Shown: positions 12,452-18,698 of the stretch, one piece after another
How positions within the stretch are numbered: position 1 is the first letter of the stretch
How the letters are laid out: every line of letters starts with the position of its first letter
IMG/VR virus record: IMGVR_UViG_3300012664_000083
Location: 1 to 28,502 of that record
Reading direction: 5' to 3' (one strand)
Source of the DNA: a virus
Lineage: Duplodnaviria; Caudoviricetes
Length of the DNA stretch: 28,502 bases
Translations under genes and position numbers: made by a program
The notes under the pieces: model-generated
Seen by the model: only the letters and a program-made list of their open reading frames with translations
Database searches by the model: none
Told to the model about the DNA's origin: nothing

Positions 12452-12651
12452 TTTGCACCCCCAAAAATTACACCAAAGTCGTTAATGATGTCACGCAATA
12501 CAGGATTAACTTGACTGTTGCGTGGTTTGCCACAGGCTTGGCGTATGCAGTCAACTTGCGCTTGTGTAAGCTCGCCACCGTATTCCATGTCGTCAAGCGC
12601 TGACTCTAAAAATTCTTCATGCTCAAGCATTAATTGATTTAATTCACCCAT
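12448..12651 (-). CDS. Hypothetical protein, first gene of the leftward transcript
   Basis: AAGGGGAA RBS at 12657-12664; ATGA coupling to erf. Confidence 0.7.
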   Translation of the reverse strand: MGELNQLMLEHEEFLESALDDMEYGGELTQAQVDCIRQACGKPRNSQVNPVLRDIINDFGVIFGGAK

Positions 12652-12670
12652 CTAAATTCCCCTTAGATAA

Positions 12671-12777
12671 ATAGCAAAATTGCTATAAGTAAGACTTTAA
12701 CATAACTTAAAACAGTTTTGCAAATATATTTTTAAGCGTTGTATTTACACACTTTGTCGTGGTAAGATTACTTCACT
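12671..12777. promoter_or_regulatory. Divergent sigma70-like promoter region (PL/PR-like)
   Basis: Leftward TTGCAA-18-TAAAGT and rightward TTGTAT-18-TAAGAT, both with extended -10 TGn. Palindrome ATAGCAA-AA-TTGCTAT at 12671-12686. GTTGT-N6-ACACT over the rightward -35. Confidence 0.6.
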
Positions 12778-13044
12778 ATGAATATAAAACTAACCGAACA
12801 CGCATTACTTCAACTATTGGGTGGCACAGTTAAAGTCGCAAAGATGTGCGATGTAGAGCCAGCAGCCGTGTCCCAATGGCGTAAAAACGGCATACCAAGG
12901 GAGCAATTATTGTTTCTTGGAGCCAGAATTGAAAAAGAAAGTCATGGCTTAGTCACTCGTCAAGACTTATTTCCAAACAACTTTTGGTTAATTTGGCCTG
13001 AGTTACTTAAAAACAACGCATTTGGAGCGCAAGACGATGAGTGA
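12778..13044 (+). CDS. Cro/YdaS-like HTH transcriptional regulator
   Basis: LGGTVKVAKMCDVEPAAVSQWRKNGIP HTH and VTRQDLFP..W.IWPEL tail; first rightward gene; no RBS, possibly leaderless. Confidence 0.85.
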   Translation: MNIKLTEHALLQLLGGTVKVAKMCDVEPAAVSQWRKNGIPREQLLFLGARIEKESHGLVTRQDLFPNNFWLIWPELLKNNAFGAQDDE

Positions 13045-13876
13045 CCCATTTGAAATATTAGAGCCAACAGTAATTAGCTTTAGCGGTGGTCGCACTTCAG
13101 CTTATATGCTTTGGAGGATATTGCAATCAAATAATGGGCTTCCAGAAGAAGCTATTGTTACTTTTGCAAATACAGGTAAAGAAGAAGAAGCTACGCTTGA
13201 ATTTGTAAGGGATTGCGGTAAAAACTGGGGCGTTGACATTCATTGGGTTGAATACCAACACGCTGAAAAACCAGCAGACCGTTGGAAAAAAGTTAACTTT
13301 GAAACTGCAAGTCGTAATGGCGAACCATTTTTTGATTTAATAGACCAAAACGGCTCATTATACCTTCCAAACCCAGTAGCTAGGATATGCACCGCCAAAC
13401 TTAAAATTCGCACCATACACGCTTATTTAAAGGCTTTAGGGTGGAAACATAACGAGAACATGGATTGGGTTGGTATTCGTGCCGATGAAATGCGTAGGGC
13501 TGCAAAAATGGACAGGGAGCGCACTCCATTGGTAACGGCTGGTGTTACCAAAGAAACTGTAGGTAAATTCTGGAAAGAGCAGTCTTTTGATTTGGGTCTG
13601 CCAAATATGAATGGCGTAACCATGCACGGAAACTGCGATTTATGCTTTTTAAAGCCTACACATCAAATTATTAGCCTAATTAGAGAAAAGCCTGAAAGGG
13701 CTGATTGGTGGATTAAGATGGAATCTCATGCCAATTCAAGCAATAAAACTTATGGTGACGGGGCAAAGTTTCGTAAAGACCGCCCAAGTTATGCAGAATT
13801 AAAGAAGTTTGCATTATCCCATGACGATATGTTTCCTACAGATGAGGAAGGTATACCTTGTTTTTGCGGTGACTAA
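13037..13876 (+). CDS. PAPS-reductase-family (PP-loop, CysH/DndC-like) protein; start revised to ATG 13037
   Basis: SFSGGRTS PP-loop, FANTGKE, R.CT..LK, GIRADE, NCDLCFLK, terminal CFC; GGAG RBS at 13024-13027. Confidence 0.85.
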   Translation: MSDPFEILEPTVISFSGGRTSAYMLWRILQSNNGLPEEAIVTFANTGKEEEATLEFVRDCGKNWGVDIHWVEYQHAEKPADRWKKVNFETASRNGEPFFDLIDQNGSLYLPNPVARICTAKLKIRTIHAYLKALGWKHNENMDWVGIRADEMRRAAKMDRERTPLVTAGVTKETVGKFWKEQSFDLGLPNMNGVTMHGNCDLCFLKPTHQIISLIREKPERADWWIKMESHANSSNKTYGDGAKFRKDRPSYAELKKFALSHDDMFPTDEEGIPCFCGD

Positions 13877-13892
13877 TAATTTGTTGTAAACT
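13864..13892 (+). promoter_or_regulatory. Putative sigma70 promoter for the intergenic RNA
   Basis: TTGCGG (13864-13869), 17 bp, TAAACT (13887-13892); predicted start ~13898 coincides with the first stem. Confidence 0.5.
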
Positions 13893-13897
13893 CACTT

Positions 13898-14088
13898 TCC
13901 TATCTCGAGGCTCTAACGACATACCAGGGGATAGGATTAACAGCGCTACTGGGGGTAATGGTTGAAACAGCGCAATATAGGTGGCGAAGATAGTGCCTAT
14001 ACCATGCAAGACTGTCGGGTGATGCGATTCCTCAATGGAAGCATTTGAAGGCACACTTAGGTAGGCTAGGTGTGCTCAAACCTCTTGG
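13898..14088 (+). ncRNA. Unidentified highly structured ncRNA (~190 nt)
   Basis: At least six stems with G-U pairs on the plus strand, in a gene-free segment that is GC-richer than its flanks (see findings). Confidence 0.65.
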
Positions 14089-14096
14089 AATTACTA

Positions 14097-14157
14097 TTAA
14101 AGACCTTATTAATACCTATAAGTACTAATAAAGAAGTCTTTAACATACCTATAAGTA
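14097..14157. repeat. AT-rich imperfect hairpin with two 13-bp direct repeats (candidate replication origin)
   Basis: TTAAAGAC (14097-14104)/GTCTTTAA (14136-14143) enclosing TTATTA/TAATAA; ATACCTATAAGTA at 14112-14124 and 14145-14157. Confidence 0.7.
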
Positions 14158-14171
14158 TCAAAAATACAACA

Positions 14172-14216
14172 TTAGGGAAAATACTTAGTGACAACTACAA
14201 AAAATAATAAGAAACT
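14172..14216 (+). promoter_or_regulatory. Putative activator-dependent promoter
   Basis: TTAGGGAAAATACTTA box, GTGACA (14188-14193), 17 bp, GAAACT (14211-14216); same layout as 10595-10639. Confidence 0.55.
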
Positions 14217-14256
14217 GTAATCACTCAATAACGAGTAAACATTTAAGGGGAATTAA

Positions 14257-14568: not shown

Positions 14569-14741
14569 CTTGGCAAACAAATTTTATTTGTGATGTTTGT
14601 GGAAAAAACAGAGGTAGGCAATTTAATCATGTTGAGTGCAATAAACTTAGACAAAAAAATTCGCCAAAAAGATACCAAAAATCACCAAAAACCTATAGCA
14701 ATAAAAATATTAACAATTTACTTAAATTAGTGGGGGAGTAA
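14565..14741 (+). CDS. 58-aa basic zinc-finger-like protein (not in ORF track)
   Basis: MTWQTNFICDVCGKNRGRQFNHVECNKLRQK...; ATGA coupling upstream and TAATG coupling downstream. Confidence 0.7.
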   Translation: MTWQTNFICDVCGKNRGRQFNHVECNKLRQKNSPKRYQKSPKTYSNKNINNLLKLVGE

Positions 14742-15112
14742 TGTTTGATGAATTCTGGTCGGCATATCCACGCAAAATAGCTAAAGCTGTTGCACGAAAG
14801 GCTTTTGCTAAATTGACTGAGCAACAACAATTAGACGCTTGCAAAGCTATTGATGACCACAATGCGTACTGGCAAGCTAAAGAAACTGATTTAGAATTTA
14901 TACCCCATCCAGCCACCTGGTTAAATCAGGAAAGATGGGAAGATGAATTAGTAATTGAACCCAAGAAACAAAAAGAATCTAAAGAATGGATGTTTAGCAA
15001 TGAAGGCATTGACGCTAAAGCAAGAGAGTTGGGTATTATGGGAAATGGCTATGACACTTATGCAAGCCTTAAAGCTAAATGTATGAAAAAGCTAGGCATG
15101 AGTGCGGTGTAA
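14741..15112 (+). CDS. Replication protein, stand-alone C-terminal initiator/DnaT-like domain
   Basis: FDEFWSAYPRK..K..A.KAF.KL and FIPHPATWLNQERWEDE motifs of phage replication organizers; GGGGGAG RBS. Confidence 0.75.
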   Translation: MFDEFWSAYPRKIAKAVARKAFAKLTEQQQLDACKAIDDHNAYWQAKETDLEFIPHPATWLNQERWEDELVIEPKKQKESKEWMFSNEGIDAKARELGIMGNGYDTYASLKAKCMKKLGMSAV

Positions 15113-15291
15113 GGTATTTGTGCCATTTACGGCATAAAAAAGGTTTGACTTGGTTTCGTATATACATCAGCGAAAAAAACTTTAGTCAAGCATTGTTAAA
15201 CGACTTCTATGACCAATGGAAGCTAGGTAATAAAGGGGAATGGGGATGTTGGAAAAATACATTGTCGCAGCAACAGGGCTTGGGTATTTAG
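15079..15291 (+). CDS. Hypothetical protein
   Basis: Tiles the operon; RHEC.VR and QW..GN.G..G.W motifs. Confidence 0.55.
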   Translation: MYEKARHECGVRYLCHLRHKKGLTWFRIYISEKNFSQALLNDFYDQWKLGNKGEWGCWKNTLSQQQGLGI

Positions 15292-17406: not shown

Positions 17407-17742
17407 CGGGTCAAACCCCAATTCAGACGAGATACGGTGCGCTCTACTACGAAACTCCTTATCGTGGTGAGTCCACTTGCTCGTCTTATGACGGCTCATG
17501 TGTATACATTCGTGGCACAAAACACGAATTACCGTGTCCAAATGACCACAACGAGCAGAAGAAATAGTAATCGTATGCTCATACTTTTCCCCGTCATCGT
17601 ATAAATAACTACCCATTAACTGTGGGTCGCTATCTACAATAAAACAAATCTGCTCTGGCAACGGCATAGCCCATCTATCAAACGGCTTCATGCAATAAAT
17701 TGCTGAATACAAGTTACGAAGAATAGACGGAGTTAGCTTCAT
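17395..17742 (-). CDS. SprT-like zinc metalloprotease
   Basis: VLCHECIH (HExxH) and HHDKEF downstream ligand; ATGA coupling to the phosphoesterase. Confidence 0.75.
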   Translation of the reverse strand: MKLTPSILRNLYSAIYCMKPFDRWAMPLPEQICFIVDSDPQLMGSYLYDDGEKYEHTITISSARCGHLDTVIRVLCHECIHMSRHKTSKWTHHDKEFRSRAHRISSELGFDPLEL

Positions 17743-18698
17743 ACTTTATGTATCTTACCCCTAAACTCCACTTCATCCTCACCCCAAACCCTAATCATTT
17801 CAGGCTGCAATAACTTGCTTCTTTCAAAAGAAAGCATCACAAAGCCACTATTCCAATCTTTAGGAGTATCTTCTGTATAGCTAAACTGTTGACCATTAGG
17901 GTCGGCTAGTGTGCCGGTTTGGACTCCCCAGCGTGTGCCGTTATAGTCATTAAACGGAATAGCTGAAAGCACATGGGTATGACCTGTAATCATGTTAACG
18001 CCAGAATTAACTGCGTTATTTCTACCGCCAGTCCAGCCACCTTTCCAACGGTGTTTAATGCAAGTATCTTCATTTATCCAAAAAGACCAGCAAGGTTGCC
18101 ACATAGGAAAGTAATCACGCAAAGAAGTGCCACGCACACCTTCAAATGATGGAAGGTTGGCAATAATAGTCATTTCTAAGCGTTGGTCATGGTTACCCAT
18201 AGGCCAAAACAATTTAGCGCCCTTAGCTACAGCTTCAATCTCGCCCAAGAAATACTGGCAAGCGTCTAATTCTTCTTTAACTGTTGGGACTTTATTCCAG
18301 TCTTGGCGTGGGAAACGGCTTAAATTAGCCCCATCAAGCGCATCGCCATTGCATACTATGGCTGTAGGCTTAAACTCTTTAATCATCTCTAACAGAGCTT
18401 TAAACGCTGTAGTGGTATCGTCAGGCCAAAAGTGTGCATCGCTAAATACAATGACACGGCCTTTTTCTATGTCCATGCCTCTACGGACATGACCAGGTGT
18501 TTGCTCAATCTTTTTAGCGTAAGCTGGGTTTAGGCTAGCAAAAGTAGGTAATTCTATTTTTAAACGACTTTCTATTGACCTACGCCTAGCCATTACATTT
18601 CTTACCGCTATTCCATGCACTCTGCCAAATTCTGCTGGGCTTCCTATTTTATTCCAAGAAGCTATCCATTCTTCATCAGTTAAATGATAACCAGCCAT
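17739..18698 (-). CDS. Calcineurin-like metallophosphoesterase with N-terminal HTH-like region
   Basis: SDAH, NGDALD, GNHD, KH, GHTH motifs; AGGGGAA RBS. Confidence 0.88.
   Translation of the reverse strand: MAGYHLTDEEWIASWNKIGSPAEFGRVHGIAVRNVMARRRSIESRLKIELPTFASLNPAYAKKIEQTPGHVRRGMDIEKGRVIVFSDAHFWPDDTTTAFKALLEMIKEFKPTAIVCNGDALDGANLSRFPRQDWNKVPTVKEELDACQYFLGEIEAVAKGAKLFWPMGNHDQRLEMTIIANLPSFEGVRGTSLRDYFPMWQPCWSFWINEDTCIKHRWKGGWTGGRNNAVNSGVNMITGHTHVLSAIPFNDYNGTRWGVQTGTLADPNGQQFSYTEDTPKDWNSGFVMLSFERSKLLQPEMIRVWGEDEVEFRGKIHKV

Follow-up and report, generated by a model that had tools for sequence, protein, structure and literature searches.

In plasmid ColE1, according to passages of PMC5043065 and PMC4412123, the persistent hybrid of RNA II depends on pairing between a segment of the RNA and the template; the hybrid is then cut by RNase H for use by Pol I, or serves for helicase loading. 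How the transcript starts this hybrid is termed speculative, even for ColE1, in the relevant passage of a 2016 review (PMC5043065). RNAs and proteins may also take each other's place. In cluster A mycobacterial prophages, as presented in parts of PMC7157519, related phages use at one place either an initiator protein (repA) or a non-coding RNA region, a tested precedent for an RNA that replaces an initiator gene. As a further case, the section of PMC3035462 that treats the MRB replicons of Vibrionaceae plasmids places a structured RNA in the region needed for Rep-independent replication. RNA origins are therefore already known in plasmids and mycobacterial prophages. Lambdoid origins, for their part, reside in the linker of the initiator gene.

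Here we analyse a stretch of phage DNA of 28,502 nucleotides (the window), where a conserved RNA of about 195 nt, folded with three covarying pseudoknots, stands at the replication locus. Comparing sequences, we lean towards the view that this RNA is a replication origin, which would replace the origin-binding domain and the iterons of a lambda-O/YdaU-type initiator and operate through an R-loop. Three points are new: an orphan RNA motif receives a proposed function, it gains a 3' domain that carries a repeat, and a set of three RNAs, unrelated to one another, can trade places with one half of an initiator of lambdoid type.

The element and its setting

The window is a 28.5 kb freshwater phage record of IMG/VR, with an estimated completeness of 83% and the gene set of a tailed phage. 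Leftward genes code for an Erf recombinase, an exonuclease and an SSB; rightward, the order is cro, a PAPS-reductase-like gene, the RNA element, two small genes and an initiator fragment of 123 amino acids. The switch between the divergent transcription units lies about 1 kb from the element. The Cro/YdaS-like gene (12778..13044, plus strand) is the upstream anchor of the replication slot; the gap between the leftward operon and this gene is only about 125 nt (12651-12778) and contains no CI-like repressor gene. Among the 22 window proteins scanned there is no primase, helicase or full-length initiator, as a first, sequence-only reading of this DNA had stated.

That reading had taken the element for an unidentified RNA. 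A scan of the whole window against Rfam (E ≤ 5) returns a single match, RF02932 (Betaproteobacteria-1), at 13897-14020 on the plus strand. With 93.7 bits for a gathering cut-off of 49.4, and covering model positions 1-120, the first 124 nt of the element, which comprise P1, P2, P4 and the three pseudoknots, are a full-length member of this catalogued motif. Rfam types RF02932 as an sRNA and gives no function, so that the match does not explain the element. We take the motif to originate in Weinberg et al. (2017). The portions of that main text consulted (PMC5737381) do not name Betaproteobacteria-1, and a literature search brought up no account of this RNA under either name; the supplement of the 2017 paper, outside that search, may already describe the pseudoknots or the phage setting. 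No ribozyme or intron matches the window in Rfam at E ≤ 5, and a tRNA/tmRNA search of the window gives none, in agreement with the earlier view that the element contains neither tRNA nor hammerhead nor intron core. A coding explanation is rejected, as no reading frame is conserved among homologs; an antisense frame of 72 codons, once considered as a possible source of the conservation, fails likewise, as at most 21 of 59 homologs keep any one antisense frame open.

Homologs were collected with a pattern for the core of the RNA, which gave at least 119 viral loci, 49 metagenome loci and few genome loci; a pattern scan of the genome collection gave seven matches, three of them due to chance. The linker GGCGAA discussed below belonged to the search pattern, so that its invariance is partly built in. 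BLAST with the RNA of the window finds no phage match and no real plasmid match over the element, while divergent queries lead to Acidovorax phage AP1, to MW202545 and to Burkholderia sp. THE68. The alignments comprise 48 non-redundant rows, and a separate model alignment has 63 rows; a covariance model derived with RNAalifold (R1), which retained only 14 pairs, was not used. In bacteria the RNA is rare: an order-wide Rfam search finds it in 2 of 151 genomes, one of which is the centre genome, with both copies in integrase-linked islands, one of them with a DUF927 gene.

A conserved fold with three covarying pseudoknots

Folded as a single sequence, the element is unexceptional (z -1.19). Its structure emerges from comparison. 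When P1, P2, P4, P7 and the three pseudoknots are scored over the 48 homologs, 87% of the cells are paired versus 74% after shuffling, none of 500 shuffles reaching the observed value; slid controls are paired at 30-42%. The nested part of the 63-row alignment gives 90% versus 70%. Shared changes were also counted along a tree, built from the same 63-row alignment that it tests, in which four control pairs show 2-5 shared changes. Covariation among homologs thus confirms the earlier suspicion of a complex, potentially pseudoknotted RNA, and conserved G-U pairs fix the plus strand as the transcript, as had been proposed.

The first hairpin, P1 (13898-13906/13928-13936), has changed on both sides at 9 of 9 pairs. 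Its loop supplies CCAG (13924-27) to pseudoknot 1, formed by CAG (13925-27) and CUG (13949-51), the pair 13924-13952 being added in some homologs; the three core pairs are formed in 60-62 of 61-62 rows, with 7 and 4 shared tree changes. P2 (GCGCU/AGCGC, 13943..13973), again changed on both sides at every one of its five pairs, holds in its loop CUGG, a G-run and AUGGU. The last of these words makes pseudoknot 2 with ACCAU (13958-62/14001-05), with both-side changes at 5/5 pairs, 89% pairing and 12 and 14 shared tree changes. The sequence-only reading had offered P2 and AUGGU/ACCAU as alternatives: both stems stand and, since both covary, they form a pseudoknot rather than alternatives. Then comes an H-type pseudoknot core (13977..14016), paired at 99-100%, made of P4 (AUAGGU/GCCUAU), the linker GGCGAA (13983-88) and P5 (GAUAGU 13989-94/ACUGUC 14011-16). 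Each of the six P5 pairs is formed in 60-63 of 63 rows, and the pair 13990-14015 underwent 18 tree changes, all 18 on both sides. Near-perfect as it is among homologs, P5 was missed in the initial list of stems. The strings in that list are all present where it placed them, and covariation bears out its P1, its CCAG/CUGG pairing, the AUAGGU/GCCUAU stem and the GCACACUUAG/CUAGGUGUGC hairpin; GGU/ACC is mostly kept among homologs. Two of its pairings are lost in the comparison, namely a kiss between CGACA and UGUCG (at four of its five pairs, only 27-37 of 57-62 rows can pair, and UGUC is used by P5) and a CAAGA/UCUUG stem (paired in 13-26 of 63 rows).

Short words in this core evoke known catalytic RNAs. 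In HDV-like ribozymes, a GGCGAA-type J4/2 is followed by a strand that pairs upstream; here the 5' strand of P5 follows GGCGAA and pairs downstream, a topology that misfits. Words resembling GACUA/UAGU suggested P7 of a group I intron, and there too the topology misfits the consensus. A GC-rich subgroup (L017, L029, L069, L108 and G010) keeps the knotted core with a different, repeat-rich 3' domain.

In the alignments, conservation extends about 70 nt beyond the Rfam end, to about 14092; the extent of about 190 nt first drawn (13898..14088) was approximately right, its end falling slightly short. The RF02932 model stops 70 nt before the end of the element and lacks P4, the pseudoknots and the repeat domain. 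This 3' domain (14017..14092, alignments A2 and A4), found also in phage AP1 and in the Burkholderia copies, consists of P6, of the hairpin P7, which bears a near-invariant GGCU and has changed on both sides at 8 of 11 pairs, and of a 3' tail. It carries a direct repeat: repeat 1 (14030..14041), of the CC-N-GG type, sits in the loop of P6, and repeat 2 (14081..14091), 51 nt after repeat 1, in the mostly unpaired tail. The word, of 10-12 nt with copies 45-85 nt apart, varies between phages and matches within each RNA. A parser fitted to 41 of 60 sequences yields 29 distinct pairs, whose copies are 78% identical versus 47% when shuffled, with a maximum of 58% in 10,000 shuffles. The other 19 sequences, window included, fall outside the parser, their flanks matching and their repeat centre being mismatched (by eye); we count them against the explanation proposed below. 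Three variable repeat positions show 11-14 shared tree changes versus 2-5 in the control pairs, and a shorter word after P5 also covaries, on the tree, with the 3' strand of P7. A complement of the repeat inside the RNA is not found beyond chance (5.5 versus 5.5). Of 50 repeat mismatches, 32 oppose G in repeat 1 to A in repeat 2 and 3 have the two bases the other way round, which is suggestive of what a G-T wobble of repeat 1 on the template at repeat 2 would allow, 21 of the 32 being at one position and the remainder standing at 11 versus 3 (p 0.057).

Alternative modules in one replication slot

Eighty loci anchored on cro, near-duplicates included, illustrate what the slot may contain: 45 have a homolog of the element (RNA A), 22 an RNA B, 3 an RNA C, 5 a full-length DUF1376 gene without RNA, and 5 are too short. 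With a second anchor gene the distribution is 33 A, 10 B, 5 C and 5 DUF1376, with 27 loci unassigned (short or of other gene order). Two RNA types are found together in none of 364 loci. On a cro tree of 62 distinct rows the four slot types are interspersed and need 16 changes, at least 9 of them forced for A, so that swaps recur.

RNA B, of about 235 nt (L139:2194-2430, L214, L220, L269 and 67 viral pattern matches), occupies the same slot; in L181 and L184 a divergent form precedes the C-domain gene. Compensatory changes affect 12 of the 58 predicted pairs of RNA B, whose 3' strand has two possible partners, a pair of similar words further upstream. RNA C, of about 185 nt (L241:5201-5389, L251, L252, L305, L313, L182-L189), in this slot as well, displays compensatory changes by eye. 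Both end in a UUGGUC..CUAU word. Neither has a match in Rfam, and profile comparison of A, B and C detects no sequence similarity to each other.

RNAs and full-length initiator exclude each other in the records searched. DUF1376 is present in 0 of 36 virus records with RNA A (0 of 23 when at least 90% complete) and in 0 of 19 with RNA B or C; RNA A occurs in none of nine DUF1376 records, only one of which is near complete. These whole-record searches detected their positive controls (3/3 each); for initiators of other HTH families, the check covered the six genomes scanned with PHROGs. Counted against the exclusion, a metagenome-assembled genome (G037) has a DUF1376 gene 52 kb along the same contig as the RNA, beside other integrases, probably in a separate element. 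The DUF1376 alleles, of 247 amino acids, have tandem AACCAAG-type repeats in the linker and a tail related to the C-domain protein; we take these DUF1376/YdaU proteins to be lambda-O-like initiators with their origin within that linker. Their genes are located behind a promoter-like site similar to that of the RNA, and in L223 a nearly identical sequence precedes the leader of the gene. This leader, short, conserved and structured, stands about 100 nt before the DUF1376 start (L223, L270, L358, L363), with a complementary pair UUAGUCAC/UUGACUAC and GGCUAGG..CC.AAAAGC wording in common with the 3' end of RNA A; presumably reminiscent of P4 CI or IsrK-type RNAs, it has no Rfam match at gathering in L223 and L270.

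RNA-bearing phages often retain half of the initiator. In 24 of the 36 RNA-A records there is only a C-domain piece of 115-149 codons. The one in the window, a protein of 123 amino acids (14741..15112, plus strand), has the C-terminal part of an initiator (phrog_270 positions 179-261 of 383, E 2e-18) and no N-terminal DNA-binding domain. It gives a weak profile match to the DUF1376 C-terminus (probability 57%, E 1e-4); a search for relatives of solved structure found none, and a protein atlas yields nothing beyond viral clusters without a name and a lead, below 0.9, to Phg_2220_C, a single-sequence fold model (pLDDT 53) having been set aside. Wherever a C-domain gene has at least 1400 nt of upstream sequence, RNA A, B or C is found there (64/64). 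A protein of 70 amino acids (15079-15291) with no PHROG or Pfam match, a candidate helicase-loading partner, follows the initiator gene in RNA-type and DUF1376-type modules alike. To be sure, what exclusion in the slot demonstrates is that modules alternate; it does not tell which component of a module is the active one. The early guess of a replication primer gains comparative support from the mutual exclusion of RNA and full-length initiator, and its primer mechanism stays a proposal.

The RNA is flanked by a promoter-like site and by a candidate unwinding region. Upstream, a promoter-like site (13864..13892, plus strand), with -35 TTGCGG (13864-69), 17 nt and -10 TAAACT (13887-92), is indeed present and predicts a start at the first stem (about 13897-13899), as first suggested, but it is too weak for a consensus scan. 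Just 5' of the RNA, 17 of 59 homologs have a -10-like hexamer and 29 others a leader with a hairpin and a T-run, which, resembling a terminator, may gate transcription into the RNA. In L023, L123, L220, L269 and L252, a long-hairpin leader with a terminator-like T-run is found 130 nt before the RNA, be it A, B or C; swapped in ahead of each of the three types, it is a possible control of copy number or timing. Downstream lies an AT-rich tract (14092..14250) with ATACCTATAAGTA repeats and an imperfect inverted repeat. In 57 of 58 homologs, the AT content of the 80 nt that follow the RNA exceeds that of the remaining locus (67% versus 57%), the sequence of the tract itself not being conserved. 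In a freshwater metatranscriptome, a contig of 223 nt, whose start falls within the -10 box, covers 13886-14090, the rest of the 2.2 kb compared being without any contig; a second has a contig of 151 nt inside the element, and in a third the contig runs on to 14204. These contigs, which show neither strand nor ends and may include DNA, are a weak hint of expression. No minus-strand promoter or terminator is called over the element, for which the contigs give no strand, and a search for an antisense control RNA at the element finds none.

Because the RNA is an allele of the origin-binding domain with its iterons, and is followed by an AT-rich tract in 57 of 58 cases, an RNA-based origin is the simplest account. 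In such an origin, host RNA polymerase would transcribe the RNA, whose knotted 5' domain would fold co-transcriptionally and display repeat 1 in the P6 loop. Behind the polymerase, repeat 1 could then pair with the repeat-2 segment of the template strand, in the role of the rG/dC pairing of ColE1; the 3' part of the transcript would stay hybridised, holding the duplex open into the AT-rich tract. The hybrid would either prime leading-strand synthesis, with RNase H and Pol I, or expose the displaced strand so that a helicase can be loaded; help would come from the C-domain-only protein in phages that have one, from a phage helicase or primase in other lineages, and from host restart proteins if there is neither. 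Some origin function, be it by an R-loop, an RNA-protein initiator or a DNA site, is likely, whereas the specific docking of one repeat on the other, deduced from how the copies vary, is tentative. A bolder reading, rather unlikely, is that, across a widespread group of betaproteobacterial phages, the DNA-binding half of the initiator has been repeatedly exchanged for one of at least three unrelated compact RNAs, with RNA A a programmable opener whose looped guide of 10-12 nt would pair with its own downstream template and whose invariant core may mature the primer.

Rival readings and known systems

The tethered nascent RNA might alternatively act as a scaffold for the C-domain-only protein or for a helicase loader, the repeats being two similar protein-binding sites. 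An RNA upstream of each of the 64 C-domain-only genes with enough flank would suit this RNA-protein initiator, as would the small CC..GG or GCU..RGC hairpins that both repeats can form and a compact triple pseudoknot fit for a binding scaffold. We find it improbable, however: 12 of the 36 RNA-bearing records have no phrog_270 C-domain match, 7 of these being at least 90% complete; the same protein family is served by three unrelated RNAs; and the partner genes vary between lineages.

Distant lineages illustrate this variety. In the complete genomes G001 and G005 the RNA is at the early-operon junction, with no recognised initiator, helicase, primase or polymerase among the ORFs scanned (36/47 and 30/42, the remainder being in the structural region). 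It comes before primase-helicase genes in G015 and G024, 34 nt after the primase stop, downstream of helicase and primase genes, in the cultured Acidovorax phage AP1, and about 1 kb after helicase/primase genes in MW202545. Both settings speak for the origin reading. ParB-like genes adjoin it in G001, G024 and AP1, with no ParA among the proteins scanned; they may be nuclease-fold modification genes. Several cases count against the origin reading. A divergent copy in G010 is about 12.7 kb from an N-truncated O-like gene and on the strand opposite to that of its neighbours, and in G025 and several metagenome loci the RNA precedes recombination or HNH genes. The 1.5-Mb plasmid of Burkholderia sp. 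THE68 harbours a pair of isolated copies of 264 bp, 88.6% alike and separated by 8.6 kb (L499:8997-9211 and 17587-17809, NZ_AP022319.1), each a whole element between metabolic genes, with no phage gene seen by eye in 27 kb. HNH endonuclease genes lie directly 3' of the RNA at six loci (L059, L383, L391, L399, L408, L413), two confirmed by PHROGs and the rest by eye; homing genes are known to sit at essential sites.

A ribozyme, a trans-acting small RNA or a self-mobile structured element that merely travels with the phage module would account for the orphans of the THE68 plasmid and of G178, where the copy lies in an integrase-bounded island, for the HNH genes directly after the RNA in several lineages, for the invariant single-stranded GGCGAA and GGCU, and for the sRNA type given by Rfam. 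We see a slim chance of this. The ribozyme, already guessed at by the sequence-only reading, finds no support, as the Rfam scan at E ≤ 5 gives no ribozyme, no intron and no family besides RF02932; the RNA is in single copy in each phage record searched; no recombinase or reverse transcriptase is linked to it; and the strict choice between three RNAs and an initiator is left unexplained. Catalysis could still be part of primer processing.

It is quite improbable that the RNA is a cis-regulatory leader (attenuator, antiterminator or translational switch) of the rightward operon of replication and late-early genes. Plasmid rep genes offer familiar examples of structured leaders, the RNA is 5' of the operon on the coding strand at most loci, and P7 and alternative pairings could switch. 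Yet the distance to the C-domain gene goes from 29 to 1626 nt with changing genes in between, the RNA of AP1 comes after the helicase and primase genes, P7 is not followed by a U-tract terminator, and the exclusion of the DNA-binding domain remains without explanation. Finally, that the element acts as single-stranded or duplex DNA (a primosome-assembly or single-strand-initiation site, its repeats being iterons for host factors) is very improbable: joint change of direct repeats is a typical mark of DNA binding sites, and Weinberg et al. consider, in the part of PMC5737381 that treats them, that their plasmid motifs may act as ssDNA, but conserved G-U pairs, together with a promoter or leader upstream, establish the plus strand as the transcript, three interlocked pseudoknots make an RNA-like fold, and metatranscriptome contigs, a weak point, cover the element.

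The RNA-based origin, if true, gives a function to an orphan Rfam motif, adds two uncatalogued RNA families, and shows that, in abundant freshwater phages, an RNA and a protein domain can stand in for each other as alleles of an origin of lambdoid type; if the bolder reading also holds, an RNA of about 200 nt is a functional domain of a phage initiator. The origin reading is directly testable, with a cassette of about 400 bp that is carried by the cultured phage AP1, and compensatory mutations in the repeat would show cleanly how a transcript sets off a persistent hybrid.

How, then, does the element compare with known systems? Most likely it would work like ColE1 RNA II without being one. It is proposed to have in common with RNA II, as described in parts of PMC5043065, PMC4412123, PMC4555960 and PMC6317783, a promoter-driven structured RNA, the absence of an origin-binding protein and an upstream segment that pairs with the template near the origin; as in ColE1-type replicons, no origin-binding initiator is encoded with the element, DUF1376 being in 0/36 and 0/19 records. 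By contrast, it has about 195 nt versus 550, with three pseudoknots and no homology (neither Rfam at E ≤ 5 in the window nor plasmid BLAST over the element finds RNA I or RNA II), a variable repeat of 10-12 nt instead of an rG/dC run, with no repeated G-run, which makes it an analogue at best, a following AT-rich tract, no RNA I detected, and often, in phages, a C-domain-only initiator or a helicase/primase beside it. Structured RNAs of Rep-independent replication regions, ARRPOF (multiply pseudoknotted), PAGEV and GEBRO, are comparable in the portions of PMC5737381 and PMC12990946 that present them, yet these and the MRB RNAs are, in the same partial accounts, plasmid-borne and longer, and the Rfam models of ARRPOF, PAGEV and GEBRO have no match in the window. 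Phage T4 oriF and oriG, too, combine a promoter, a downstream unwinding element and a persistent hybrid, whereas the passages on them in PMC4412123 describe no conserved RNA fold and T4 has its own replisome. A lambdoid O/YdaU origin unites a full-length initiator with iterons inside its gene; the window has the C-domain only, and its sister DUF1376 alleles have both. Closest in genetic logic, the mycobacterial prophage origins have a non-coding RNA alternating with an initiator gene among related phages, in parABS-linked plasmid-prophages of Actinobacteria, with no structure described in the sections concerned (PMC7157519), whereas the present element belongs to a cro-O-type module of betaproteobacterial phages, where half an initiator is replaced and three unrelated folds alternate.
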